The notes under the pieces were generated by a model, which saw nothing but the letters and a program-made list of their open reading frames with translations, was not told where the DNA came from and ran no database searches. From an uncultured Alphaproteobacteria bacterium (GTDB taxonomy: Bacteria; Pseudomonadota; Alphaproteobacteria; Rs-D84): DNA of 18,884 nt. Position 1 is the stretch's first letter; every line of letters starts with the position of its first letter. The DNA lies in contig CALXXY010000010.1 of the NCBI GenBank assembly GCA_944392815.1, positions 1 through 18,884 of the forward strand, read 5' to 3'. The position numbers and the translations under genes were made by a program. Shown piece after piece: positions 5,571 to 18,642 of this stretch.

Positions 5571-6236
5571 TTAAAAACCCTGTGGTGTGTCCATTTTTAC
5601 TTTGGATACTTTTTTATCCAACGCAGAAATCACTTCGTTTGTGATATCCAAATTGGCTGCATTTTGACCCAAGCGTGTGAAACGACCGTCAATAACCATG
5701 GACAGATCTTTCTTAGCAATCACACCCTCGATAATTGGATCCAGATGTTTTTCCTGGACTTCGTTCAATGCTTTTTGGAACGACACTTCGATGCTTTGTG
5801 CGCGTTCTGTCAAATCGCGTTGCAATTCAGTCACGCGATTTTGATAATCAACGATACGACGTTGCAATGCGTCACGGGACAAAACGTCCTGGGATTCTTC
5901 GATTTCAGTTTTTTCTTCTTCTAATTCTTTTTGTCTGGATTCCAATTCATCGCGCAGTTTGTCCTCGTATTTGGCGCGCTGTGCGGATAAATCTTTTAAC
6001 ACAGCGGCCTGGGTTTGAATTGCGTCCATACGGATAACTGCGATGCGCAAATCGGCGGCATTCGCGGCGTCAGTTGTGACAACCTGCAGTGCTTCTTCTG
6101 CGGAAACAGTTTTTTCACCGCGCAACGCAGACAGCCCCCAAATGCCCAGTGCCGCAACCACGACAACAGCAACGGCAATAATGCCATATTTTACGTATTT
6201 TTTCCCAGCCGAACTGGATTGATTTTTGTTTGCCAT
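5571..6236 (-). CDS. skp: OmpH/Skp-family periplasmic chaperone
   Basis: IAVIRMDAI start strand, long charged coiled coil, LSMVID and LDITNEVISALD end motifs; upstream of lpxD-fabZ; AGGGG RBS before ATG 6236. The N-terminal hydrophobic segment is long. Confidence 0.85.
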   Translation of the reverse strand: MANKNQSSSAGKKYVKYGIIAVAVVVVAALGIWGLSALRGEKTVSAEEALQVVTTDAANAADLRIAVIRMDAIQTQAAVLKDLSAQRAKYEDKLRDELESRQKELEEEKTEIEESQDVLSRDALQRRIVDYQNRVTELQRDLTERAQSIEVSFQKALNEVQEKHLDPIIEGVIAKKDLSMVIDGRFTRLGQNAANLDITNEVISALDKKVSKVKMDTPQGF

Positions 6237-6267
6237 AATTTCCCCTTTTTTTATTTTATACACGGGC

Positions 6268-6276
6268 AGTATAACA
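6268..6276 (-). promoter_or_regulatory. Extended -10 promoter element for skp
   Basis: TGtTATACT on the minus strand in the AT-rich gap upstream of skp. Confidence 0.45.
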
Positions 6277-6314
6277 ATAAATTTTTAAAAATAAAAGTGA
6301 AAGTTATTCCGATT

Positions 6315-6989
6315 TTATCGCGCAGGCACCAAACGAATTTCCACGCGCCTGTTGGTCAGTCGCCCTATGTCGTCCTGGGCGGCGATGGGGCGTGTGGCCC
6401 CGCGTCCAACAATGAACATGCGTGCGGTGTTAATGCCGTGCTGGGACAAATACACGCCGACCCTTTGTGCCATGTCCAATGATAATGCGTCGGCCGCCGC
6501 CGCAGACATTGCGTCTGTATATCCAGCGATTTCCAAAAATGTTGCGTCATATTTTTTCAAAATTTTGGAAATAGTTTTCAACGTATCTGCACCATCTGCG
6601 GAAATATCGGCAACGTTTAATTCCATAATTGCGTCACGCACCAAAATCACAACAACATCAGTGCCTGCGCGCTGGACAGAAATTCCGGGCTTGCGCAATG
6701 CGTCATATAATTCATATTCCAAATTCGCCATGTAATTGACACTGGTGGCGGTATCGTTTTGAACCTTGTCCCCGTATTGGGCCGCCGCCGGCGTATCCAC
6801 AGATGATATTAATTTCCCACCTGCACCCAAAAATACAGGCCGCTTTGCAATACGCGCTGTTTCCGTCATATCAGTAAAACTGGCGCCGCGCAGATAGTGT
6901 GACCATGTGTTTCGTGCAGGGCTGTGATACCGTATGCACCCGGTCAATAATATTACAGTTGATAAAATCGCGATATTATACGATTTCAT
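6315..6989 (-). CDS. OmpA-C-like domain lipoprotein (YiaD/Pal-like), degenerate peptidoglycan motif
   Basis: Lipobox LTGC at residue 18; LEIAGYTD, VGRGATRPIA and NRRVEI motifs; GGGG RBS. Confidence 0.85.
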   Translation of the reverse strand: MKSYNIAILSTVILLTGCIRYHSPARNTWSHYLRGASFTDMTETARIAKRPVFLGAGGKLISSVDTPAAAQYGDKVQNDTATSVNYMANLEYELYDALRKPGISVQRAGTDVVVILVRDAIMELNVADISADGADTLKTISKILKKYDATFLEIAGYTDAMSAAAADALSLDMAQRVGVYLSQHGINTARMFIVGRGATRPIAAQDDIGRLTNRRVEIRLVPAR

Positions 6990-6998
6990 ACGTCCCCA

Positions 6999-7460
6999 TT
7001 ATTCTATGACAAAAGATATATTGTTTGTGTTCGTTGAAAAACAATTCGGGTCATTCGATGTTAATTCAACATTATTCACAATCATGCGCGTGGCCCATTG
7101 TGGTGGTGTGGCGGTAAAATATTGACATTCGCCCTGGGTTAAATTCACCAGATTAATCGCGAACGCGGCCCCATCATCAACAGCGGCCACCGACCAATCG
7201 TCGCCGCCAATTGGTGCGTTTGCATTTGCCAACGCCCCCGCATCAACCAAATATTGCACAGACAACCCAGTATAATCACCGCGCATATCCATCAATAATT
7301 TAGTGTTGCGTACAATTTGTTCCATTTCAGTTGACGCAATTTTGCGCATTTGATTATTACGAATAACATTGTACATGCTGATGGCGGCGGCACTCATAAT
7401 CCCAGCAATGGCCAACACGCCGATAATTTCAATCATCGAAGCCCCGCGTTCATGAATCAT
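6999..7460 (-). CDS. Type IV pilin, PilS/type IVb major-pilin-like
   Basis: Class III signal MIHERG|ASMIEIIGVLAIAGIMSAAAISMY (Gly-1, Glu+5). The DYTGLS...APIGG...FAINL...C...IVNN...C...NISF pattern with two C-terminal Cys resembles PilS-type pilins. 153 aa. Confidence 0.8.
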   Translation of the reverse strand: MIHERGASMIEIIGVLAIAGIMSAAAISMYNVIRNNQMRKIASTEMEQIVRNTKLLMDMRGDYTGLSVQYLVDAGALANANAPIGGDDWSVAAVDDGAAFAINLVNLTQGECQYFTATPPQWATRMIVNNVELTSNDPNCFSTNTNNISFVIE

Positions 7461-7477
7461 ATCATTCCCCCATATTT

Positions 7478-9025
7478 TTATTTTACGCCAACAATTTCCG
7501 CGTCCGCAAACAAATCCATTGCGCTGGCCACCAATGGATCAGATTCTAATTCTTCTTTTTTCTGTTCAGTAATGGTGTGCGCATGCGGTGATTCCGTCAT
7601 GCGTTCCAATGTCCATGCATGCCCAGTTTTATTTTCCAGCCACACCGACAATTTATGCGCAAAATCGGCATCGCCCCGTCTGTCATAATATTTAATGGTG
7701 TTGTTGGAAATTTCGACAACCTCCAGATTGCTGGTATAGTACGAATACAGCAAAATTTCTTTGGAATGTTGCAACGCGTTTGCCAAATCATTTGCGTTGT
7801 TGATTTCCAACATTTGCGTGTTTTGCTGTGTTGCTGCCGCGGGCGCAGCGACTGGGGCTGGCGCAGATTGTGGCGCATTTGATTGCTGTTGTTTTAATAT
7901 ATCCGCCACAGATGGCATATCGGCAATATGCATCAAACGTATAACCAACATATCAAAGCATTGCTTTTGATTTCCAGACGCCTGCATTTCAGGCACGGCC
8001 GCCACCATAACCTGCCATATGCGTGACAGAGTATTCAGTGACACACGTGCATCGATTTTTGCAATTTGTTCACGTTGATCCGCGGTATATGGGGAATTAG
8101 TCACCTGGCCGGCGCGAATGGCCGGGTGCATACGCGTTGCCCAATGTGTCCATTCCATCATATCGGTCAACAGCATGGACAAATCGGCACCATTATTGTA
8201 AATTTCGTCCACTTTGGCCAATGCCGCGGCCGTATCCCCGGACAATAAAGTTTCCATAAAGCCAACAACAACCCCGCGGTCGGCGCGCTTTAACATGGCC
8301 AACACCGCCGCTTCGTCAACATGCCCGCCCGTTTGCGCAATTGCCTGGTCCAACAAAGACAATCCGTCACGCACAGACCCATCGGCCGCCCGCGCCAGCA
8401 ATTCATTTGCGCCATCGGTTAATTCAATTTTTTCCTGTTCGGCAATCCATGCGAAATGCTTTTTCAGTGTTTCCACAGGCACACGCACCAAATCAAAACG
8501 TTGGCACCGAGATAAAATAGTGACCGGTACTTTGCGTATTTCGGTTGTCGCCAAAATGAACACGACGTGTTCTGGTGGTTCCTCGAGTGTTTTCAGCAAC
8601 GCATTAAACGCCGGCACGGATAACATGTGCGCTTCGTCGATAATGTAAATTTTATAACGTCCATTTGTCGGGCGATATTGCGCAGTATCCAAAATATCAC
8701 GCATATTATCCACGCCCGTATGTGACGCAGCGTCGATTTCCATAACGTCAATATGTTGGCCGGCTGCAATTGCGCGACAGTTTTCGCACACGCCGCATGG
8801 CGTTGCCGTTGGGCCATCGGACGATAAACAGTTTAATGCCTTGGCCAATATGCGGGCGGTACTGGTTTTCCCAGTTCCACGAATGCCGGTAAAAATATAC
8901 GCGTGTGCAATGCGGCCGGTATTGATTGCGGTGGTCAAAGTTTTGACCAACACGTCCTGGCCAATCAAAGAATTAAAATCCTGGCTGCGATACTTGCGTG
9001 CTAAAACTGTGTAATTGCTGTCCAT
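7478..9025 (-). CDS. dnaX: DNA polymerase III subunit gamma/tau
   Basis: LARKYR, Walker A GIRGTGKT, Zn motif C...PCGVCENC, EIDAAS, IIDEAHML, NALLKTLEEPP, TILSRCQRF, GSVRDGLSLLDQ; AAGGAAG RBS before ATG 9025. Confidence 0.97.
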   Translation of the reverse strand: MDSNYTVLARKYRSQDFNSLIGQDVLVKTLTTAINTGRIAHAYIFTGIRGTGKTSTARILAKALNCLSSDGPTATPCGVCENCRAIAAGQHIDVMEIDAASHTGVDNMRDILDTAQYRPTNGRYKIYIIDEAHMLSVPAFNALLKTLEEPPEHVVFILATTEIRKVPVTILSRCQRFDLVRVPVETLKKHFAWIAEQEKIELTDGANELLARAADGSVRDGLSLLDQAIAQTGGHVDEAAVLAMLKRADRGVVVGFMETLLSGDTAAALAKVDEIYNNGADLSMLLTDMMEWTHWATRMHPAIRAGQVTNSPYTADQREQIAKIDARVSLNTLSRIWQVMVAAVPEMQASGNQKQCFDMLVIRLMHIADMPSVADILKQQQSNAPQSAPAPVAAPAAATQQNTQMLEINNANDLANALQHSKEILLYSYYTSNLEVVEISNNTIKYYDRRGDADFAHKLSVWLENKTGHAWTLERMTESPHAHTITEQKKEELESDPLVASAMDLFADAEIVGVK

Positions 9026-9048
9026 GGTGTAAACTTCCTTTTGGCCAC

Positions 9049-9076
9049 AGCATAGCAAAACACAGTAAAAATTCAA
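9049..9076 (-). promoter_or_regulatory. Putative sigma70 promoter of the dnaX-pilin-ompA unit
   Basis: Minus strand TTGAAT-16 nt-TATGCT, with TG extended -10. Confidence 0.45.
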
Positions 9077-9106
9077 GGGTTAAAGTTGCGCCCCCGCACG
9101 GAAAAA

Positions 9107-9415
9107 TTATTTTTCATTCATGATGAAATCAGGCAGTGTTGCGTCGTCTTCATCAGTTGTGTCCACTGCGTCAGCCGTATCGACAATTTCCTCTATATTT
9201 GGTGTTTTGTCGCCGCCCCCACGGGTGGAATCTATTTTGCCCTGTTCGGCATTAACAATGCGGCCATAATGTTCGGCGGCCTGCATTAAACGTTCGCGTT
9301 CAATTTCGTCGGACGTTTGGCGCGCCTGGTCCATGTATTGTTTTCTTTTCTGACGCCATTTATGACAGCGCTGAATCATCTGTCCTACGGACGATTGGTT
9401 TTTCTTGTTTTGCAT
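9107..9415 (-). CDS. DUF4167-like protein
   Basis: YMDQARQTSDEIERERLMQAAEHYGRIV matches the alphaproteobacterial DUF4167 'Q.AEHY.RI' motif; acidic tail. Start uncertain (9415 chosen). Confidence 0.7.
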   Translation of the reverse strand: MQNKKNQSSVGQMIQRCHKWRQKRKQYMDQARQTSDEIERERLMQAAEHYGRIVNAEQGKIDSTRGGGDKTPNIEEIVDTADAVDTTDEDDATLPDFIMNEK

Positions 9416-9490
9416 ATTCGTTTTATTTGTTTTTATAATCAGGAAATAATTCGGCAACGATTTTTAATTCGTTCCCATTCAACATCGCGA

Positions 9491-9542
9491 ATGATAAAGC
9501 ATCTTAAAACTGATTGCAATATTTTTTTTCAATTGCTATTAT
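9491..9542. promoter_or_regulatory. Symmetric bidirectional sigma70 promoter with shared palindromic -35 (TTGCAA)
   Basis: TTGCAA at 9514-9519. Plus strand: 17 nt, then TGcTATTAT (-10 at 9537-9542). Minus strand: 17 nt, then TATCAT (9491-9496). Confidence 0.55.
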
Positions 9543-9569
9543 CCTTCAGTGTAGGAGGGTGATTGAAAT

Positions 9570-10931
9570 TTGTCGCGTCAAAATGGAAACTTTTTACTGC
9601 AGGCATTATTGGCGCTGACGCTGATATTTTCATTTATCCCGTTTTTTGCCGGACGATTGGCTGCGCGTGATATGGATTCGCAAATGTATGCGTCCACCCA
9701 AAAAATCGAGGTTGCCCAAACAGCAGCGCGCATTTTTATCCGTGAACGTGCGAACGATTTGCCATATAACACAACGGTCGTGTCCGGCAATAATTTTTCT
9801 GATTTACTGGAATCATACGGATTGCCGTTGGGGTTTATTCCGCGTACCGCACTGGGCCAGGATATTTCCCTGGTTATAAACAAAACACCAATTGCAGTCA
9901 CGGCATATTTGCGGATATCGGGCGGCGATTTGTCGGCTGTCCAGTTGGCGGAATTGGCGCGTCGCGTTGGTTTTTATGCGACTGTGTCGGGGTCTGAAAT
10001 AAATGTTGGGTTGGCGTTGGACGCCGGGTATTCAGATGTTGTTCGCCGCAACGAAACAGATTTGGATAACAGTGCGTTTTTAACGGATTTGGACATGGGT
10101 GGTTTTTCTTTTACCAGGGGCGGACAAATATTCGCACGTCGCGGCGAATTTGATACGGCGCAATTTGGAACTTTATCAATCTTTGGTACCGAAGATGGCC
10201 GCAAAACGCGCAGTAATATCGAAGATATGGCCGCAAACATGGCCGTGTTTCAAAGTGGACTGGGTGAATCGGCGTTGTCATTAACGCGCGGTTCGTTATA
10301 TGTTGGTAATATTTCGGCGCGTACATTGTCTATGTTTGGCGACACGGGGAATTTTACATCAAATGCGGCCGCAGCATATGATTTTGCAATGACGGCCGGC
10401 CGCACGAGTTTTTCAGGTCCCCTGGAATGGACTGTTGGCGGTGACGTTATCAGTGAAAATATAAATTTCAGCGTTGAACGTTTGGATATCGAATCATATA
10501 TTGACGCGTCCCGTGGCCAGGACGTATACATTGACCCCGACGAATTATCTGTGTCGTCACGTACCGGTATTGAAACAGGCACATTAATTGCGTCAAATGT
10601 CACCATGCGCGACCAAACGTCCGACGCATTAAATAATGGCGAAACAGGTTTGGTGATTTTGGACATTCGCCCCGCTGGGACATCTGTGTTGCCCGATGTT
10701 TTGTTGGACACAATCAGCAATGACGGATTTAAAATTCTGGACGACCCGTCGGATTCGGGCGATAAAACGGTAAATTGTCGTGATATCATTGCCGAAATGG
10801 ATAATCACACGCGGTACAACGCGCGTTCTTTGGCACAGTATTTGGTGTGCCAATATGTGTTTTGGCAACGGTTGGAACAACGCATAGATATAAAACAATG
10901 TTTGTTGGACGGGCGCAGTGACTGTAAATAA
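9570..10931 (+). CDS. PilV(shufflon N-terminal)-like large minor pilin 1, non-canonical (Gln at +5)
   Basis: TTG start after an AGGAGGG RBS; MSRQNG|NFLLQALLALTLIF; PilV-constant-region-like AARIFI...LESYGLPLGF..RTALGQ and RRNETDLDNSAFLTDLDMGG; beta-rich stalk; four Cys in the C-terminal ~55 aa. Confidence 0.65.
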   Translation: MSRQNGNFLLQALLALTLIFSFIPFFAGRLAARDMDSQMYASTQKIEVAQTAARIFIRERANDLPYNTTVVSGNNFSDLLESYGLPLGFIPRTALGQDISLVINKTPIAVTAYLRISGGDLSAVQLAELARRVGFYATVSGSEINVGLALDAGYSDVVRRNETDLDNSAFLTDLDMGGFSFTRGGQIFARRGEFDTAQFGTLSIFGTEDGRKTRSNIEDMAANMAVFQSGLGESALSLTRGSLYVGNISARTLSMFGDTGNFTSNAAAAYDFAMTAGRTSFSGPLEWTVGGDVISENINFSVERLDIESYIDASRGQDVYIDPDELSVSSRTGIETGTLIASNVTMRDQTSDALNNGETGLVILDIRPAGTSVLPDVLLDTISNDGFKILDDPSDSGDKTVNCRDIIAEMDNHTRYNARSLAQYLVCQYVFWQRLEQRIDIKQCLLDGRSDCK

Positions 10932-10932
10932 A

Positions 10933-12123
10933 ATGAAATTTTTTTCAAATTCTGAACGTGGCGCCAGCATGTTGGAAGTTTTGCTGGCCATGGCGATTGT
11001 TGCCATGGCAACCCCGTTTTTATACAGTCAAATTGCAGATACCAATGATACATTGCGCGATATGGCTGTCGCGAATGAAATTACAGATTTGCGCGACCCG
11101 GTGTTGAATTTTGTCCGTTTGAATCAGGGCGATTGGCCGGCCACTGCGCAGATAAAATTATCAGACGACGAATTGAATGAAATATCCGAAATGCCAACCG
11201 CCGGATTCATAGATAAATATACAGTGCGTGGTGCTACTATGACGGACGTATATTTGGCATTTGATATTGATGACACAGAATTGCGCACCAATCAAATCGC
11301 GCGCCACATTGGTGCGGACGCGGCCGTTGTTGGTGCGGACGGCATTGCATACGGGCGTGCATGGGCGGTGGCGGCGCCTGATTTTAAACCCGGTGATTTG
11401 ATATACAGAATATCGCGCGACATATCGGGCCAGGATAAAACCCAATACCTGCACAGAACTGAAACAGGCGAAGAAAACCTGAACATGATGCTGCGTGATT
11501 TGAATATGAACAATAATCGCGTGTATGATGTTGGTGGCGTGTTGGCGGATTCCGCCGAAATACGTGGTGCGGCCGCCCAGTTTGTTGACACGCCCCGCCT
11601 GACGGCGGACACACTGTATTTTTCATCTGGCGCGAATTTGGACGGCGATGTGGCGAATTTTGGTTCTATGCGTGTGACGGGTGATATATCAGGATTTCGT
11701 AATATTTACGCCGATACATTAAACGGCCGCACATATACAACCCAGGGTCGAATAATAACCGATCGTGCCACGGTATTAAATTCCGTGAACGTGGGGAATA
11801 ATTTGGAATTAAAATCGGATTCTGCGCGCACCATCAGTGGATTTACTGGTATCACGGCACACACGGTATTAACATCGTATCTGTCAACCGAAGAAATTAT
11901 ATTCTATGATAATTTCGGCCTGACCGTATCGGGCGAATTGCTGTATTCGACAACTGTTCCAATCAGAATAGGGCGTTGGTCATTCCCGTCATACACGCCG
12001 CCCCAGTTTGCTGAATTGCACCTGGACAGGGCAACGGTGCCACCCGCCCCGTCTGCGTCTGAATTTGATGCGATTATGTCATCTGATTGGGAAACGGCCA
12101 GACCAGTGGAAATAACGCAATGA
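10933..12123 (+). CDS. PilV(shufflon N-terminal)-like large minor pilin 2
   Basis: ERG|ASMLEVLLAMAIVAM class III signal; AYGRAW and YLHRTETGEENLNMMLRDLNMNNNRV resemble the PilV constant-region 'LYR...LN.M.T.IDMG.N' motif; ATG 1 nt after the previous stop. Confidence 0.75.
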   Translation: MKFFSNSERGASMLEVLLAMAIVAMATPFLYSQIADTNDTLRDMAVANEITDLRDPVLNFVRLNQGDWPATAQIKLSDDELNEISEMPTAGFIDKYTVRGATMTDVYLAFDIDDTELRTNQIARHIGADAAVVGADGIAYGRAWAVAAPDFKPGDLIYRISRDISGQDKTQYLHRTETGEENLNMMLRDLNMNNNRVYDVGGVLADSAEIRGAAAQFVDTPRLTADTLYFSSGANLDGDVANFGSMRVTGDISGFRNIYADTLNGRTYTTQGRIITDRATVLNSVNVGNNLELKSDSARTISGFTGITAHTVLTSYLSTEEIIFYDNFGLTVSGELLYSTTVPIRIGRWSFPSYTPPQFAELHLDRATVPPAPSASEFDAIMSSDWETARPVEITQ

Positions 12124-13436
12124 AAAAATGGAACAGAATTTTTACAGGTCACAAATCGAATCAGCGTGGCGCAATGCTGGTTGAATTGCTGATGAGTGTT
12201 GCGTTGGCCGCAATCATAATGCCGTTTATTTTCCGATATCAGCAAAGCATTGCTGTCCGTGCCGAAAACATCGCAATCACGCGCGACATGTCGGAAATCC
12301 AGGACGCATTGGAACGCTATATTTTGGATAACCGCGAATTGTTGCTGAACACAGTCGGCCGTAATATCACGCGTGTTAATATGTCTGATTTGATTGAATA
12401 CGGATTGAACCCTGATTTATCAGATAATGACGATTATCAATTGCGCGTATTGAAATCAAACGATATCGACGACAGGGCCACTTTACAGGGTGTCATAGTT
12501 TTTTCGTCTGATGAAATTAATCCTATGCGCACACGCGAAATTGTGGCAATGGGCGGCGACGAAATGGGTTTTATCGAAGGCAACCGTGCATACGGCACAT
12601 TCGGTGCATGGCGTGCAGATACTTTGGATATGGGGCTGGACGTGACGGACGGCATTGTTGAAACCACATCGGTCAATCGTGATAATGCGTTGTATTTATA
12701 TCGCGTGCCAACGGATAATGCATCTGATGCGATGATGTTGTCGGGATTGAACCTGGGCGGGCACGATATAACGAACGCAGCGTTTTTTGACGCGTCATCT
12801 GCGGAATTTGGTGAAACATTGACCATGGGCGTTGCGGTTGCGGACGACGTAATTTTTCAAAATCGTACAACATTGGACAATTTGCTGAACGTGGCCAGTG
12901 CAACTGTATCGGGCATTTTATCATCAGATTCCAGAACGATGGAGGTTGCGCGTAATTTCTCTCTGGCGGATACAGGAAAATTCACCAGTTTAACAACAGG
13001 TGACCTGTATGTATCAAATATGACATTGGGGGGATTATCAATCAATTCGGATTTGGACGGCCCAGCATTGTTGAATGTGAATCGATCTGTTGATATGACG
13101 GGCGGCACAATTGACGCAATGTTCGTGACGGTTGGATTTGCAGGGTCAATAACACCACGCCTGGTTGTGTACGACAGAATCGAAGATTCCAATAACCCCG
13201 CATATTTTTGGGACCTGAATGCATCAGTTGCCAACATGTTCGACATTACTTTGCAAAATTTAACCGATTTGGCCCAGTTGGCGGTTGCCTATGAAAACGC
13301 GTCCAACACAGAATCAGGCAAAATATTCGGCGCGGTTGCCGCAAACAATAACGCCACAGTGTCTGATTACATGAACGCCATATCGGAAATCCAGGCGCGC
13401 GTGCGCGCAAAATATCGGTTGTTGAATTTGGAATAA
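12120..13436 (+). CDS. PilV(shufflon N-terminal)-like large minor pilin 3
   Basis: QRG|AMLVELLMSVALAAII class III signal; ALERYI...MSDLIEYGL, AYGTFGAW and YLYRVPTDNASDAMMLSGLNLGGHDITN; ATGA overlap with the previous gene. Confidence 0.78.
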   Translation: MKKWNRIFTGHKSNQRGAMLVELLMSVALAAIIMPFIFRYQQSIAVRAENIAITRDMSEIQDALERYILDNRELLLNTVGRNITRVNMSDLIEYGLNPDLSDNDDYQLRVLKSNDIDDRATLQGVIVFSSDEINPMRTREIVAMGGDEMGFIEGNRAYGTFGAWRADTLDMGLDVTDGIVETTSVNRDNALYLYRVPTDNASDAMMLSGLNLGGHDITNAAFFDASSAEFGETLTMGVAVADDVIFQNRTTLDNLLNVASATVSGILSSDSRTMEVARNFSLADTGKFTSLTTGDLYVSNMTLGGLSINSDLDGPALLNVNRSVDMTGGTIDAMFVTVGFAGSITPRLVVYDRIEDSNNPAYFWDLNASVANMFDITLQNLTDLAQLAVAYENASNTESGKIFGAVAANNNATVSDYMNAISEIQARVRAKYRLLNLE

Positions 13437-13456
13437 TTTGTGGTATAAAACATCAT

Positions 13457-13966
13457 ATGAAAACAGTATGTGATTTTTGCAAAACAGAATATTCATTGGA
13501 CGCGATTCCGACCGGACCGGTGAAATGCGCAGTGTGTGGTCATACCTGGGTTGTGCCACGTCCCCAGCGTCGTAATTCAATATTGGTATTCATTGCGGCA
13601 CTGTGCGCGTTAATGGCGGCGTGTGTGTTTGCGGTGGCGGTTATGTACAAACACAGGGTGACGGAAATTCAAACCCACCCGTTAATTGCGGAAATTGGCG
13701 ATATAACAACGGACGTTGACGACAGCGGTACAATGCACTTTGTGGTCAGTGGCCGCGTGGTTAATCGTTCAGACCAGATTTATGGTGTGCCCGGACTGGT
13801 TGTGATTTCATATGACGCAAATGGTGCGGTTATCGATAAACAGCGATTTTTACCGCCGGCAACTTTGTTGGACGCGGGCGACAATGCTGGATTTATGCAC
13901 ACTTTGTCCGTGCCGGTCGACAATGTTGAAAAAATAGCCGTCGAATTGGAAACCCAGGGGGACTGA
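13457..13966 (+). CDS. Zinc-ribbon (MJ0042-type) + TM + DUF3426-like protein, ZitP-like architecture
   Basis: CDFC-x16-CAVCGHTW zinc ribbon, TM helix (ILVFIAALCALMAACVFAVAVMY), then a beta-rich domain with VSGRVVN and VPGLVVISYDANG typical of DUF3426/FxLYD-like folds. Confidence 0.7.
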   Translation: MKTVCDFCKTEYSLDAIPTGPVKCAVCGHTWVVPRPQRRNSILVFIAALCALMAACVFAVAVMYKHRVTEIQTHPLIAEIGDITTDVDDSGTMHFVVSGRVVNRSDQIYGVPGLVVISYDANGAVIDKQRFLPPATLLDAGDNAGFMHTLSVPVDNVEKIAVELETQGD

Positions 13967-13967
13967 T

Positions 13968-14462
13968 ATGAAACGCATATTTACTGCTGTGATTTGTGGC
14001 GTTATGTTTATTGCCGGCGCATATGCAGCCGACGCCCCAACCCAGGGTGGCGGTGGTGACGCGCCCGCCCCACAACCACGCATCAGCATTTTTTCCACCA
14101 GCACCGATTGGCAGGCATTAACCGGCCTGCGTTATTCGGAATATCGTGGCGAATTCATTCCATCATCTGGAATTGTCGGACGTGGATTGGTGCTGTATTA
14201 TCTGGACGGATTTCCATGTTATGGCCTGGGCGAAGGGGTCCGTGTCTGGATTGGCCCCAATAATAAACACGAAGGCGAACTGCGCCTGGCGTGCATATAC
14301 GCCCCAACCGAAATAAAATTTACATGGCGCAACGCCGCCCGTGACGCAGACCAGGCACAAAGTACCGGCATTTTAACATGCCCGGTTGAATCGTCTGGCC
14401 GTGAATTAACCATAGATTTATCCGATTGTGAAAAGGGCCCCGATTGGGACGAATACAAATAA
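13968..14462 (+). CDS. Small secreted hypothetical protein
   Basis: Sec signal ending AYA|A, Gly/Pro linker, four Cys in the mature domain; GGGGG RBS; tightly packed between its neighbours. Confidence 0.7.
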   Translation: MKRIFTAVICGVMFIAGAYAADAPTQGGGGDAPAPQPRISIFSTSTDWQALTGLRYSEYRGEFIPSSGIVGRGLVLYYLDGFPCYGLGEGVRVWIGPNNKHEGELRLACIYAPTEIKFTWRNAARDADQAQSTGILTCPVESSGRELTIDLSDCEKGPDWDEYK

Positions 14463-15421
14463 TGACAGATACACGCCATTTTGTTGTTTCTGATGAATTC
14501 GCGTCTGTGCGTCTGGATAAATTTTTGGTCGCGCAAATTCCTGAATTGACCCGCAGTGAAATCCAACGTTGCACAGTCACACTGAATGACGCGCCGGCCA
14601 AATTTGGCGCACGTTTGCGGGTTGGGGATAAAATTGCCGTGACAATACCCGAACAAAAAACTTTTGTGGCGGCGGCCAATATCGCGTCCGATTTTGATCT
14701 GGATATTTTATTCGAAGACGATGATATAATCGTCATCAACAAACCGCGTGGCGTGGTTATGTACCCATCGGCCGGCAATAATACGGGCACACTGGTGCAA
14801 AACATATTGGCGCATACGCATTTGTCTGCGCTGGGGGGCGACGTGCGCCCAGGGGTTGTTCATCGCCTGGACAGGGATACCAGTGGCGTTATGGTGTTCG
14901 CCAAATCGGACGCAGCATTTCGCGGATTGGTAAAAATATTTTCTGCGCACGATTTGACCAGAAAATATATCGCGTTTGTTTGGGGCGTGCCGAATTGGGA
15001 CGGTGCGGACATTACAGGGAACATTGCGCGTTCATCACGCAATCGCCAAAAAATGAGCATGGTGAAATCAGGTGGCAAACCTGCGCACACAATTGTAAAC
15101 GTGGCGGACGTTTGGCCGCGCGCGGGCGTGTCGGAATTTCGCTGTACATTAATGACTGGGCGCACCCATCAAATTCGTGTGCATTTATCGGCGCATGGAT
15201 TTCCAGTTTTGTGCGACCCGCTGTATGGTCGTGCGTCAAATCGCATGGCGTCTGTGCGCGACGGGGAATTATTGGAATTTTTAAAAACACACAACGGACA
15301 AATGCTGCACGCGGAAATTTTGGATTTCACGCACCCTGTGACGGGCGAAAAACTGCATTTCAAAGCGCACATGCCGCCCGACATGGCCGAATTAAAATCG
15401 ATATTGGACGATATTGGATAA
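14462..15421 (+). CDS. rluD: RluA/RluD-family 23S rRNA pseudouridine synthase
   Basis: S4 domain RLDKFL, INKPRG, PGVVHRLDRDTSG, TGRTHQIRVHL, DPLYG, QMLHA..L.F.HP; TAATG stop/start overlap at 14460-14464. Confidence 0.9.
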   Translation: MTDTRHFVVSDEFASVRLDKFLVAQIPELTRSEIQRCTVTLNDAPAKFGARLRVGDKIAVTIPEQKTFVAAANIASDFDLDILFEDDDIIVINKPRGVVMYPSAGNNTGTLVQNILAHTHLSALGGDVRPGVVHRLDRDTSGVMVFAKSDAAFRGLVKIFSAHDLTRKYIAFVWGVPNWDGADITGNIARSSRNRQKMSMVKSGGKPAHTIVNVADVWPRAGVSEFRCTLMTGRTHQIRVHLSAHGFPVLCDPLYGRASNRMASVRDGELLEFLKTHNGQMLHAEILDFTHPVTGEKLHFKAHMPPDMAELKSILDDIG

Positions 15422-15448
15422 TCGGGGTATTTCGCCCCGAATTTTTTT
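15422..15448 (+). terminator. Intrinsic terminator after rluD
   Basis: TCGGGG-tatttcg-CCCCGA followed by ATTTTTTT. Confidence 0.75.
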
Positions 15449-15480: not shown

Positions 15481-15508
15481 TTGTCAGATTGTGATTTTAT
15501 GTTATACT
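15481..15508 (+). promoter_or_regulatory. Putative sigma70 promoter for the large Cys-rich gene
   Basis: TTGTCA-16 nt-TATACT with TG extended -10; GGAG RBS at 15523-15526. Confidence 0.55.
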
Positions 15509-15534
15509 TAATCAATAAGTATGGAGTGAGTCGA

Positions 15535-18500
15535 ATGAACTTTCTGAAAAAAACGCTTGGTTTTCTGGCTGTTTGCAGTATTGTGCCCGCGGCATATGCA
15601 TTGACTGCGCGTCCCAGTGTTATAAACACGGTGACAACCGCGTCGCGTCGACTGCCAACAATGACGGCTTATTTAACGAGTTCTGGCACAACAACCGGTT
15701 CAACGTCGAACCTGTTGGATAACGCCGAATGTATCGATGCATACACATCGTGCCTGCATGGCGCGGACGTTTGTGGCCCTAATTTCGAGGAATGCACCAC
15801 AGACGTTTTATTCCACGGTCAAATGCCAAAATGTTTAAGCACGCTGGCCCAGTGTTCTGCATCTGGTATTAATGCGTTGTTTGGAACATCAAACACAACG
15901 GCGTTGGGAAATGTTGCCGCGCGTAATTCGTATGACGAAATCACCGACTATGTATATCCAACCGACGGCAGTGTTTTGGGGCAAATGATTGCCGGTGCCG
16001 CAATTTCGAATATGTACAGCACATCTGACTGTGTGCGTCGCTATACAACATGTTTGCAGCGCGACAATGTTTGCGGTGCGGATTTCGAATTGTGCACAAC
16101 AAACACAGAATTCAGAAAACAGAAAGTATATTGCGATTCCACCCTGGCACGTTGCCAGTCCGATGGCAAAATCGAATTGTTTGGGTCAACAAATACAACG
16201 GTTAACCCCGCCGCCGACAGCCGTGTTGGCGTCATGATTGCCGAGGGCGCAGCCCTGGCCGCGGTTAACGCTGTGTCCACCTGCTACAAGGTTGCAGACC
16301 AATGTATCCTGAACGCATGTGCCCAAAACCCATATAAATGTTACGAGGACGCAACCGTCAGCACAATCAACCTGGTTGATGCGATTAATTCCGGTTCTGC
16401 GGTTGACGCGGCAACAACTGAAATCACGGTTGACACCAATTCCAGTTCTGCTGTGCAATCGTACATCAGAAATGCGTGCCTGGACACAATCGGTTCGAAT
16501 AAATATTGCTATGCGACGTTCTTGGGCAATGGCGTAATGCCAACCGCTTCGCAATTAAGTGACGCCGATAACCAAGAAGACACTTTTGCCGAGGCATATT
16601 CCGCCCGCATGAATTCTTCTATGAAGGCGCGTATCACCGAATTAATCCAGGATTTTGACACCGATGCCAAATCCAACTGCGCCAACACCATTCAGTCATG
16701 CGCAATGCGTGTTTGCGGTGGTGGTTCGGGGGCTGCGTGCTATTCCCAGGTGTTTGGTGCCACGGATAAAACAATTAATAATTCTGTGTCATACAATGAA
16801 ATCAAAACCGGGTGCCAGGATATTGTGAATACCGACCCATATTGCAAATATGCGGCCGCAAATCCGAACGATGTCGGTGGTTATACATACACATATATTA
16901 ATAATAACGCATTTGACACACTGTTCCCGGAATACAGTTCCAGCAGTGGCGACCCAATTGGTGTAATTGCGGCATTGAATGCGTCTTTGGCCACCAGTTA
17001 CAGTGACGCGGCCATCGCGCAAATGCGCACCCAGTGCGAATCTGTGGCGAAAAGTTGCGTACGTTCCATGTGCGGTGAAGATTTCATGAATTGCTATCGC
17101 AACCGTACAGACGTGTATTCGTCATTGACCAACACGGGTTCATCATCGTTCGACAACAGCATGAACAAAGTCGGCGGTGTATTGGATTACACAGTTGTGT
17201 TGGGATTGTGCCTGGATACAGTTAAAAACGCCGACGTATGCCAGGAACACTTGGCGATTGAACAAAACAAATTGAAAATCGCGAATAATTCCACATCGTC
17301 CTGGGGCGCGGGCACAAACAGTGTTCGCCAGGGCTGGATAGACGCCGGTGCCGCGACCAACATTACTGAAAACCAGGTCCAGGCAACCGACGATAACGGC
17401 AATCTGCTGTGCACAGCCAGCGACGGCAGCCAGGGCGTATGCTATTCAGTGGACGCCAGTGGCCGTGTGTACGACACGCCGGTATATATGTCATATTCGA
17501 CATATGTCCAGAACCAGGCAGCGTCGACCCTGTTCCGTGATTTGATATACGATTTGGAAAAAGAAGCCCAGGCAATCTATAACAGCAAATTAACCCAGGA
17601 ACAAAATATGTGCCTGGCTGCGAACAGTGGCGGTATCATGGCGTCTGGTGATACTGGGGGTACATATATGTGGGTGAAATTGCGCGGCAAAAACGTTCCA
17701 AACGATTATACAATAATGGGATTGGGTCGTAATGATTTCGCCGCCAGCAACGAATTGTATGGTTCGTTCTGCAGCGTGCAAGTTCGCCTGCAATCCGATG
17801 ATGCGGATATCCAGAATGTCATGAACGGTGCAGATTGGGCAACCACATACTTTGCGGTTGGCGACGCATTCACCTGCGGCAGCTGGATACCGTCTAATGT
17901 ATTGGAGGATTTGGCCAATCAACATGCTGCCGATGAAACAGCGGGCATGGAGGAACGTCAGCTCACAACAGCACGCTGGCTGACAGCGCTGGGCGCATTG
18001 GGCAGTGGTGTTGGCGGCGCATTCTTGGGCAATGGTATACAAAAGGGCACTATCCTGGGTGGCCTGACAGGCAACAAGAAAGACACCAAAAACAGCCGCA
18101 CGTTGGCCGTGAATCGTATCGAAAGTACAAAAAGTTTGATGAACACGGGCGATTATCAGCAGGCGCAGACCTATATGACATCGGCGGCCTCTTCGGCCAA
18201 GGAATTGGGCGTGCCTGACGGTATTATTACCGCTGCTTCTGATGCTGTCACGGAATGGGCAAACGCATATCGTGCATATGAAAGCGAGACGAATACCACG
18301 AGGAAAAATGAAAAATACAACCAGGCCGAGTCCTTAAGAAACACCGCTGTTAATCGGTTGAATTCGTTGAAAACCGAATGCGAAAACTCGTCCGATTCCA
18401 ACGATGGTGACACATGGTGGAGCCGCAGTGGTGGCGCATTGGTTGGCAGTGTGGTGACTGCTGCGGCCGGGGGCGTCCTGGTGAACAGAGCCACGCGCGA

Positions 18501-18642
18501 TATTCAAAAGGCAAACCTGAGCAAAGCCGAACAAGAGGCCTATGACAAATTTATGAATGATGTTGGTAATCACATCAAATGCTATATCGGCCTGGATGCA
18601 GCCGGCCAATATGGCGACATCATAAGCGTCAGCATGGAATAA
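15535..18642 (+). CDS. Large secreted cysteine-rich repeat protein (~1035 aa) with C-terminal glycine-zipper segments
   Basis: Signal peptide MNFLKKTLGFLAVCSIVPAAYA; five 6-Cys modules; two Gly/Ala-rich hydrophobic segments near the C-terminus; own putative promoter and terminator. No family recognised. Confidence 0.85.
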   Translation: MNFLKKTLGFLAVCSIVPAAYALTARPSVINTVTTASRRLPTMTAYLTSSGTTTGSTSNLLDNAECIDAYTSCLHGADVCGPNFEECTTDVLFHGQMPKCLSTLAQCSASGINALFGTSNTTALGNVAARNSYDEITDYVYPTDGSVLGQMIAGAAISNMYSTSDCVRRYTTCLQRDNVCGADFELCTTNTEFRKQKVYCDSTLARCQSDGKIELFGSTNTTVNPAADSRVGVMIAEGAALAAVNAVSTCYKVADQCILNACAQNPYKCYEDATVSTINLVDAINSGSAVDAATTEITVDTNSSSAVQSYIRNACLDTIGSNKYCYATFLGNGVMPTASQLSDADNQEDTFAEAYSARMNSSMKARITELIQDFDTDAKSNCANTIQSCAMRVCGGGSGAACYSQVFGATDKTINNSVSYNEIKTGCQDIVNTDPYCKYAAANPNDVGGYTYTYINNNAFDTLFPEYSSSSGDPIGVIAALNASLATSYSDAAIAQMRTQCESVAKSCVRSMCGEDFMNCYRNRTDVYSSLTNTGSSSFDNSMNKVGGVLDYTVVLGLCLDTVKNADVCQEHLAIEQNKLKIANNSTSSWGAGTNSVRQGWIDAGAATNITENQVQATDDNGNLLCTASDGSQGVCYSVDASGRVYDTPVYMSYSTYVQNQAASTLFRDLIYDLEKEAQAIYNSKLTQEQNMCLAANSGGIMASGDTGGTYMWVKLRGKNVPNDYTIMGLGRNDFAASNELYGSFCSVQVRLQSDDADIQNVMNGADWATTYFAVGDAFTCGSWIPSNVLEDLANQHAADETAGMEERQLTTARWLTALGALGSGVGGAFLGNGIQKGTILGGLTGNKKDTKNSRTLAVNRIESTKSLMNTGDYQQAQTYMTSAASSAKELGVPDGIITAASDAVTEWANAYRAYESETNTTRKNEKYNQAESLRNTAVNRLNSLKTECENSSDSNDGDTWWSRSGGALVGSVVTAAAGGVLVNRATRDIQKANLSKAEQEAYDKFMNDVGNHIKCYIGLDAAGQYGDIISVSME

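Follow-up and report, generated by a model that had tools for sequence, protein, structure and literature searches.

What use does a bacterium have for three large PilV-like minor pilins encoded one after the other? The type IVb pilus tips described so far consist either of a single homotrimeric minor pilin, as in TCP and CFA/III, or of a single PilV with an end that is shuffled by a recombinase. The three genes considered here, g1, g2, and g3, lie on contig CALXXY010000010.1 of an uncultured alphaproteobacterium of the lineage Rs-D84. This contig (C10), 18,884 nucleotides (nt) long, is the entire window that was analyzed and belongs to a 927-kb assembly, GCA_944392815.1, of 18 contigs that is 96.8% complete. 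Homologs bear names that point to gut Alphaproteobacteria, likewise uncultured. The answer that we regard as probable is that the products of g1, g2, and g3 combine 1:1:1 into a heterotrimer that forms the tip of a chromosomal type IVb pilus and initiates its assembly.

The three genes (Table 1) leave almost no space between them. The TAA stop codon of g1 (10929-10931) is followed by a single base and then by the ATG of g2 at 10933, and g2 and g3 share an ATGA overlap at 12120-12123; the tight coupling described in a first-pass annotation of this DNA, made from the sequence alone, is thus seen directly at the junctions. The TTG with which g1 begins is 9 nt downstream of an AGGAGG ribosome-binding site. 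The earliest terminator-like sequence whose stem is strong (a pattern match only) comes at 15422, after a pseudouridine synthase gene. The trio is probably cotranscribed. Its surroundings are housekeeping genes, not a transfer region.

Are the three proteins related to one another? BLASTP clearly links only g2 and g3 (26% identity, E = 2e-8); g1 and g2 match at the N terminus only (E = 0.026), and g1 and g3 gave no match, as befits a trio that had been called highly diverged. Profiles reach further. Alignments of orthologs drawn from 24 same-genus genomes (A1, A2, and A3, with 21, 25, and 24 sequences) match one another in hhalign: A2 to A3 at 98.6% (E = 1e-15, 276 columns), A1 to A3 at 96.0% (E = 4.4e-9, 209 columns), and A1 to A2 at 91.5% (E = 8.5e-7, 288 columns). 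The trio is therefore of common descent.

And are they related to PilV? Searched against 1.84 billion proteins, the g3 profile matched 386 at an E value of ≤0.001, and a domain scan of 49 distant matches found Shufflon_N in 12 and Bactofilin in 5. (Nine distant relatives of about 1,000 amino acids [aa] were also scanned, yielding one Shufflon_N, one weak Bactofilin, and otherwise no domain.) Three of the Shufflon_N proteins, P0227, P0232, and P0267, match the g3 profile with E values of 6.7e-13, 2.9e-12, and 1.7e-9, respectively, and meet the threshold of PF04917 (Shufflon_N) itself, with E values of 5e-46 to 3e-25. Aligned by hhalign with these three, g3 scores 99.1% (E = 1.7e-18, 251 columns), g2 scores 97.5% (E = 6.7e-12, 203 columns), and g1 scores 73.6% (E = 2.9e-5, 184 columns). 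The kinship of g1 to PilV is firmer by way of g3, because A1 and A3 match at 96.0%. The motif LYR..N.M...L.MGG..I.N is in register between the trio and the Shufflon_N proteins. Judged from these comparisons, the trio are members of a wider PilV family that lies beyond the reach of the Pfam model. The PilV likeness noticed in the first pass thus stands at the level of profiles and the motif, if not at that of PF04917, to which we return below. No other family claims the three: Pfam and NCBIfam scans of g1, g2, and g3 gave only sub-threshold N-terminal matches, among them a Pfam N_methyl match in g2 only (15.1 bits versus a cutoff of 21.2), and searches of the PDB sequences with all three profiles returned nothing past the N-terminal pilin helix.

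All three have the prepilin-type N terminus that the first-pass annotation had called a class III signal (the slash marks the predicted cleavage): MSRQNG/NFLLQ in g1, ..SERG/ASMLE in g2, and ..NQRG/AMLVE in g3. A Gly at position -1, a hydrophobic helix, and Glu at mature position 5 are kept in the orthologs, except that g1 has Gln, not Glu, at position 5. This Gln5 is present in 21 of 21 same-genus orthologs and in family f3. A genome-wide scan for the prepilin pattern recovered the trio and two small pilins; five further matches were judged false from their own sequences. The motif is conserved as well. R..M...L.MGG is in register across all three genes in the profile comparison, and its residues are invariant in g2 (R175, M186, L190, and M192; 25 orthologs) and in g3 (R195, M206, L210, and L212; 24 orthologs); in g1 (21 orthologs), F170, L171, and L174 are invariant and M176 is nearly so, which bears out the common R/M/L motif first noticed in this genome alone. 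Also invariant in g1 are Q11 and, near the C terminus, C403, C427, C444, and C452.

How widely is the trio kept? This genome (G000) has exactly three profile matches, all on the trio contig. Within the genus, all three genes are full length in 21 of 25 loci; of the other four, two run into a contig end, and the remaining two, from assemblies of at least 100 contigs, each show one gene that appears shortened. (These are a g1 of 263 aa in locus L026 of genome G011 and a g3 of 273 aa in locus L027 of genome G012, both fragmented assemblies with 4 to 5% contamination, where either a real break or an assembly error may be the cause.) Among 16 genomes from five further families of the order, 13 carry three full-length tandem genes; in the other three, contigs are short or end early, or the first gene is shortened. 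A profile sample taken across the order found a match in 119 of 121 genomes and in 111 of 111 high-quality genomes. Three matches were found in 89 of the 121, two in 17, four to six in 12, one in 1, and none in 2; the genomes with one match or none are only 61 to 70% complete, and some of the counts of two mark a sensitivity limit, as three of those genomes hold the full trio in the locus survey. Gaps between the genes range from -26 to +35 nt in relatives, as read by a rough start-finding script. The idea that relatives would keep exactly three genes in a fixed order is largely borne out.

The genes are also maintained in sequence. The ratio of nonsynonymous to synonymous substitution rates (dN/dS) is 0.07 to 0.20 across all three genes, with dS near saturation, and 0.08, 0.16, and 0.11 for the least saturated pair; to judge from these substitution rates, all three are under purifying selection. 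Conservation is uniform over the length of the proteins, with no hypervariable C terminus.

When did one gene become three? A tree built on 280 N-terminal residues (59 rows, including 8 bona fide PilV proteins) separates the trio from the 8 PilV proteins by a branch with an SH-like approximate likelihood ratio test (SH-aLRT) value of 99. Labels for gene position change 4 times on the tree, against a minimum of 3 and a mean of 31.9 for shuffled labels; none of 200 shuffles came as low. Constraining the first position to a single clade improved the likelihood (P value of the approximately unbiased test [p-AU], 0.666), the same constraint on the third position was not rejected (p-AU, 0.418), and the second position is one clade in a second tree (SH-aLRT, 88). 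Since gene position tracks phylogeny, the triplication is older than the six families, and the three positions are three orthologous groups across them, so the ancient triplication proposed at first sight finds its support here. A recent local duplication was considered and rejected, the tree placing the split before the six families.

How common are tandem trios elsewhere? In other bacteria, 50 loci around bona fide Shufflon_N genes were surveyed, and 48 have a single copy within about 8 kb; of the other two, one has two tandem copies and one has three copies that are not all tandem. A survey of 199 further genomes from the class gave a profile match in 32; one row of this survey, G171, is an unpublished genome that supports no claim here. 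Three tandem copies occur in G304 and G234, and two tandem copies plus one elsewhere occur in G208. The G234 copies form their own clade (SH-aLRT, 98), so tandem trios probably arose more than once; those of G304 are partly separate. Two further genomes of the class, G156 and G322, which belong to one genus and are 1.2 to 1.4 Mb in size, have seven to eight scattered PilV-like genes of 370 to 800 aa, the family having expanded there in quite another manner. A Salmonella plasmid (NZ_CP022118.1; L053) has a type IVb cluster with PilO2 and three large genes annotated as hypothetical that are pilin-like (6205-7644, 17506-18498, and 19041-20477; 479, 330, and 478 aa), with prepilin N termini and weak likeness to the PilV profile.

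Do the three proteins fit together? A single complex was predicted for the C-terminal parts from just before the motif onward (g1 residues 150 to 453, g2 165 to 396, and g3 185 to 438), with our own alignments supplied and g1 as the scored partner. The three runs gave interaction scores (ipSAE) of 0.84, 0.82, and 0.72 (median, 0.82), versus 0.01 for the best of three controls; with an unrelated protein in place of g3, the g1 score was 0.01. The mark used for a pass is cleared by 58 of 80 solved complexes and by 2 of 110 mismatched pairs, a calibration that is only approximate for supplied alignments and three chains. The runs share at least 58% of their contacts, with a partner predicted local distance difference test (pLDDT) score of at least 56. 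The predicted contacts number 883 to 1,395 and run unbroken over about 130 residues per chain, and the C-terminal parts also touch each other. The nearest residue pairs progress jointly along the chains (g3:244-g1:202, g3:263-g1:227, and g3:296-g1:267 for g3 and g1; g2:228-g1:225 and g2:287-g1:289 for g2 and g1), a few residues from the homologous register of the A1-A3 alignment. The modeled geometry fits three parallel, intertwined stalks.

And the rest of the pilus? Going by gene content, an R64-like type IVb machinery is present elsewhere in the same genome: secretin, PilO, PilP, ATPase, platform, and peptidase. One cluster encodes a PilO-like protein (PAP_PilO, PF06864, E = 1.6e-13, above the cutoff), a PilP-family protein (TIGR03021, 36.7 bits, above the cutoff of 34.65), a T2SSE ATPase, and a T2SSF platform protein. 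The PilO-like protein matches "type 4b pilus protein PilO2" on plasmids. A lipoprotein secretin matches the PilN-type IVB model TIGR02520 with an E value of 4e-70 yet falls below the cutoff of that model, while Pfam Secretin is above its cutoff. A prepilin peptidase is also present. The pilus genes are spread over at least five places in the genome. No retraction ATPase was seen, because the sole other T2SSE-type ATPase is VirB11-like. The small pilin gene at 6999-7460 (Table 1) encodes a candidate major pilin of the same pilus. A second small pilin (154 aa, MKYESG/RSMIE) is encoded far from the first, on contig C2 (61862-62326, minus strand). Nine nucleotides past the stop of the first small pilin gene begins a gene for an OmpA-family lipoprotein (6315-6989, minus strand; PF00691, E = 2.8e-12), which might serve the pilus as a peptidoglycan-anchored partner.

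The machinery for shuffling a PilV tip, on the other hand, was not found. A search of 9000-15000 for sfx-like or shufflon-like inverted repeats gave nothing convincing, just short chance-like repeats, and the genome has four tyrosine recombinases, on contigs C1 and C2 and none on the trio contig. Both surveys agree with the first-pass annotation, which had noted neither rci nor an inverted cassette.

How would such a tip work? By analogy with known tips, one copy each of g1, g2, and g3 would join in a 1:1:1 complex. Their N-terminal pilin domains would be the first subunits of the filament, their putative beta-rich stalks are predicted to intertwine roughly in register from L.MGG onward, and a single composite head would be built from the three C-terminal parts, each unlike the others. 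Sitting at the pilus tip, the complex would prime assembly and serve as an adhesin. The tip location and priming role are taken from CofB and TcpB and from the rule under which a filament is started by bulky minor pilins and subunits without Glu5 (PMC5207764, PMC13533445, PMC10191384), with the Glu5-less subunit being the first and tip-most (PMC5207764, PMC10191384). A fixed heterotrimer would thus stand in for the inversion-varied PilV of IncI plasmids or the CofB or TcpB homotrimer.

IncI PilV (R64 and TP114) shares with the trio homologous N-terminal 200 to 250 residues, including LYR..N.M...L.MGG..I.N, and the IncI pilus, like this genome, has PilN, PilO, PilP, an ATPase, a platform, and a peptidase. 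It is likewise a large minor pilin, thought to be a tip adhesin (PMC10654706). However, IncI PilV is plasmid borne and comes from one gene whose 3' end is exchanged by Rci among two to eight variants (PMC9045228, PMC10654706), whereas the trio consists of three fixed genes on a chromosome, among core genes. CofB of CFA/III and TcpB of TCP are large minor pilins in which a pilin domain is joined to a C-terminal extension, and a three-chain tip primes assembly (PMC13533445, PMC5207764, PMC10191384). For the trio, a three-chain C-terminal assembly is predicted. In CofB and TcpB, however, three identical chains come from a single gene rather than from three paralogous genes, and PDB searches with the three profiles found no sequence similarity to them past the N-terminal helix. 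A fixed PilV has a precedent of its own: a PilV-type minor pilin reportedly belongs to the type IVb pilus of PAPI-1, a chromosome-borne element of Pseudomonas aeruginosa, and this element is not known to carry a shufflon. A PAPI-1-type PilV is single copy, unlike the trio. The open-access literature searched held no description of tandem PilV paralogs or of a heterotrimeric PilV tip, so the first-pass remark that no such system is described has so far met no counterexample in that literature.

Several findings weigh against a heterotrimeric tip. PF04917 itself has no match to g1, g2, or g3 at an E value of ≤1 and none in a six-frame search of the genome at an E value of ≤10. The putative beta-rich stalk is drawn from the sequence pattern and from the Bactofilin matches in 5 of 49 distant relatives. 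Gln5 in g1 occurs in only two of the six families; f2, f4, f5, and f6 have Glu5 in all three genes. Three is not a universal number in the wider family, given the 12 genomes of the order with four to six matches and other alphaproteobacteria with 1, 2, or 7 to 8 copies. As for the model, the third run is weaker than the others (0.72, partner pLDDT of 57, 505 confident contacts), and the tool also lets through proteins closely related to a true partner (10 of 12 colicin pairs). A pass says that such stalks are predicted to trimerize but gives no preference for the mixed form over homotrimers; with paralogs as chains, the model does not separate the two. The heterotrimeric tip suggested at first sight therefore emerges with a clear pass of its 1:1:1 C-terminal model, a pass that would also be compatible with homotrimers of the paralogs.

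This brings up the main rival, an unlikely one in our view, in which each paralog makes its own homotrimeric tip and the cell assembles three kinds of pilus with fixed specificities, a hard-wired substitute for a shufflon. The C-terminal parts do differ among the paralogs, which can substitute for one another in complex models; the C terminus of IncI PilV sets specificity (PMC9045228, PMC10654706), and the CofB and TcpB tips are homotrimeric (PMC13533445). Alternative adhesins, however, would hardly call for tightly spaced or overlapping genes with no visible switch, kept together in almost every sampled genome, and their C termini show no diversification, being conserved to the same degree as the remainder of the proteins. 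Moreover, the modeled C-terminal parts touch, the g1 interface is lost (0.01) when g3 is replaced, and Gln5 in g1 fits a division of labor.

Could the three instead resemble GspH-I-J-K or PilH-I-J-K and stack stepwise by means of the pilin domains only, the intertwined stalk being a modeling artifact? Most type IV filaments do use several operon-encoded minor pilins, one of them Glu5-less (PMC13533445, PMC5207764, PMC10191384), and g2 has a weak match to GspI below the cutoff (TIGR01707, E = 0.0016, 18.9 bits versus 44.35). The resemblance to GspI-J-K and PilI-J-K is one of outline: three different pilin-like proteins from adjacent genes make one tip, with one lacking Glu5, as g1 does with its Gln5 (PMC13533445, PMC5207764, PMC10191384). 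Those proteins, though, are three distinct old families that bind through globular pilin domains, whereas the trio are paralogs of each other and of PilV, not of GspI, GspJ, or GspK, and are predicted to make contact along a long C-terminal stalk; Pfam and NCBIfam scans matched no trio protein to GspJ or GspK. The predicted interface is C terminal and very large, and it is missing in all three controls. Gene order differs as well, since the Glu5-less gene comes last in systems of the GspI-J-K and PilI-J-K type and lies 3' in type II secretion and Gram-positive systems (PMC5207764), while the Gln5 gene is first in the trio. A stacked priming set thus appears improbable.

Least probable of all, and scarcely to be expected, is a trio devoted to secretion or DNA transfer, whether as the tip of a type IVb or type II-like device that works like a piston and exports a partner protein or as that of a mating pilus working with the type IV secretion system of this genome: the failure to find a retraction ATPase, the VirD4-like coupling protein on the trio contig, the binding of secreted effectors by the TCP and CFA/III tips (PMC13533445, PMC5207764, PMC10191384), and the service of R64-type pili in conjugation (PMC9045228, PMC10654706) speak for it, but the trio sits among housekeeping genes outside any transfer region, no effector candidate was identified, and such a role, being a matter of what the pilus is used for, would fit a heterotrimeric tip too.

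How might a heterotrimeric tip have come about? One scenario, offered tentatively and with somewhat less than even confidence, is that a homotrimeric type IVb tip pilin became an obligate heterotrimer by triplication before this order of bacteria with genomes of about 0.9 Mb diversified, gaining intertwined stalks and a composite receptor-binding head; the apical subunit would later have lost Glu5 in some families, and at least one other alphaproteobacterial lineage, that of G234, would have taken the step from one gene to a tandem trio independently. If true, an intertwined trio of PilV paralogs would be a third solution to building a tip, next to the type IVb tips described above and to the tips of other type IV filaments, heterotrimers made of three unrelated old families (PMC13533445, PMC10191384). 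It would be a neat natural example of how duplication turns a homomer into a heteromer, with three copies favored because the tip is three chained. It would also suggest that a tip of three chains is how PilV itself works, a statement not found in the literature searched. Universal retention in reduced genomes would then mean that the pilus is central to attachment to a host or partner cell. For a widespread, uncultured group of gut bacteria whose genomes are very small, the trio would also offer a conserved and concrete surface structure to study.

Table 1. Positions of the trio, its predicted interfaces, and other mapped features within the window
Feature	Position	Strand	Remarks
g1	9570-10931	+	PilV-like minor pilin paralog, 453 aa, TTG start
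g2	10933-12123	+	PilV-like minor pilin paralog, 396 aa, Glu5
g3	12120-13436	+	PilV-like minor pilin paralog, 438 aa, Glu5; copy nearest bona fide PilV
g1 interface, residues 169-307	10074-10490	+	Predicted complex; begins at the LDMGG motif
g2 interface, residues 184-309	11482-11859	+	Predicted complex
g3 interface, residues 205-336	12732-13127	+	Predicted complex
Promoter-like site, TTGCAA-17-TATTAT with TG	9514-9542	+	Upstream of g1; consensus scan only
Small pilin, MIHERG/ASMIE, 153 aa	6999-7460	-	Weak PilS_N (PF08805, E = 0.021) and N_methyl matches, below cutoff

The window holds further genes. Between g3 and the pseudouridine synthase gene lie two small genes (13457-14462, plus strand). 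One, of 169 aa, starts 20 nt past g3 and has an MJ0042-type zinc ribbon with weak DUF3426 and FxLYD matches; the other, of 164 aa, looks secreted and has no assigned family. At 15481-18642 (plus strand) is a gene for a 1,053-aa Cys-rich protein with a signal-like N terminus, for which Pfam and NCBIfam give no family. In other families of the order, too, large open reading frames rich in Cys (700 to 1,000 aa) lie near the trio (L040, L043, L047, and L050 to L052). At the opposite end of the window, a gene cut by the contig end (3-1514, minus strand) encodes a VirD4/TraG-type coupling protein (PF02534, E = 1.2e-20); together with the VirB11-like ATPase on contig C1, it indicates the presence of a type IV secretion system in the genome as well. 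No RNA data set is listed as containing this stretch; four chicken-gut runs are possibly RNA. Some of the sequencing data sets that contain DNA of this stretch are labeled chicken gut metagenome.

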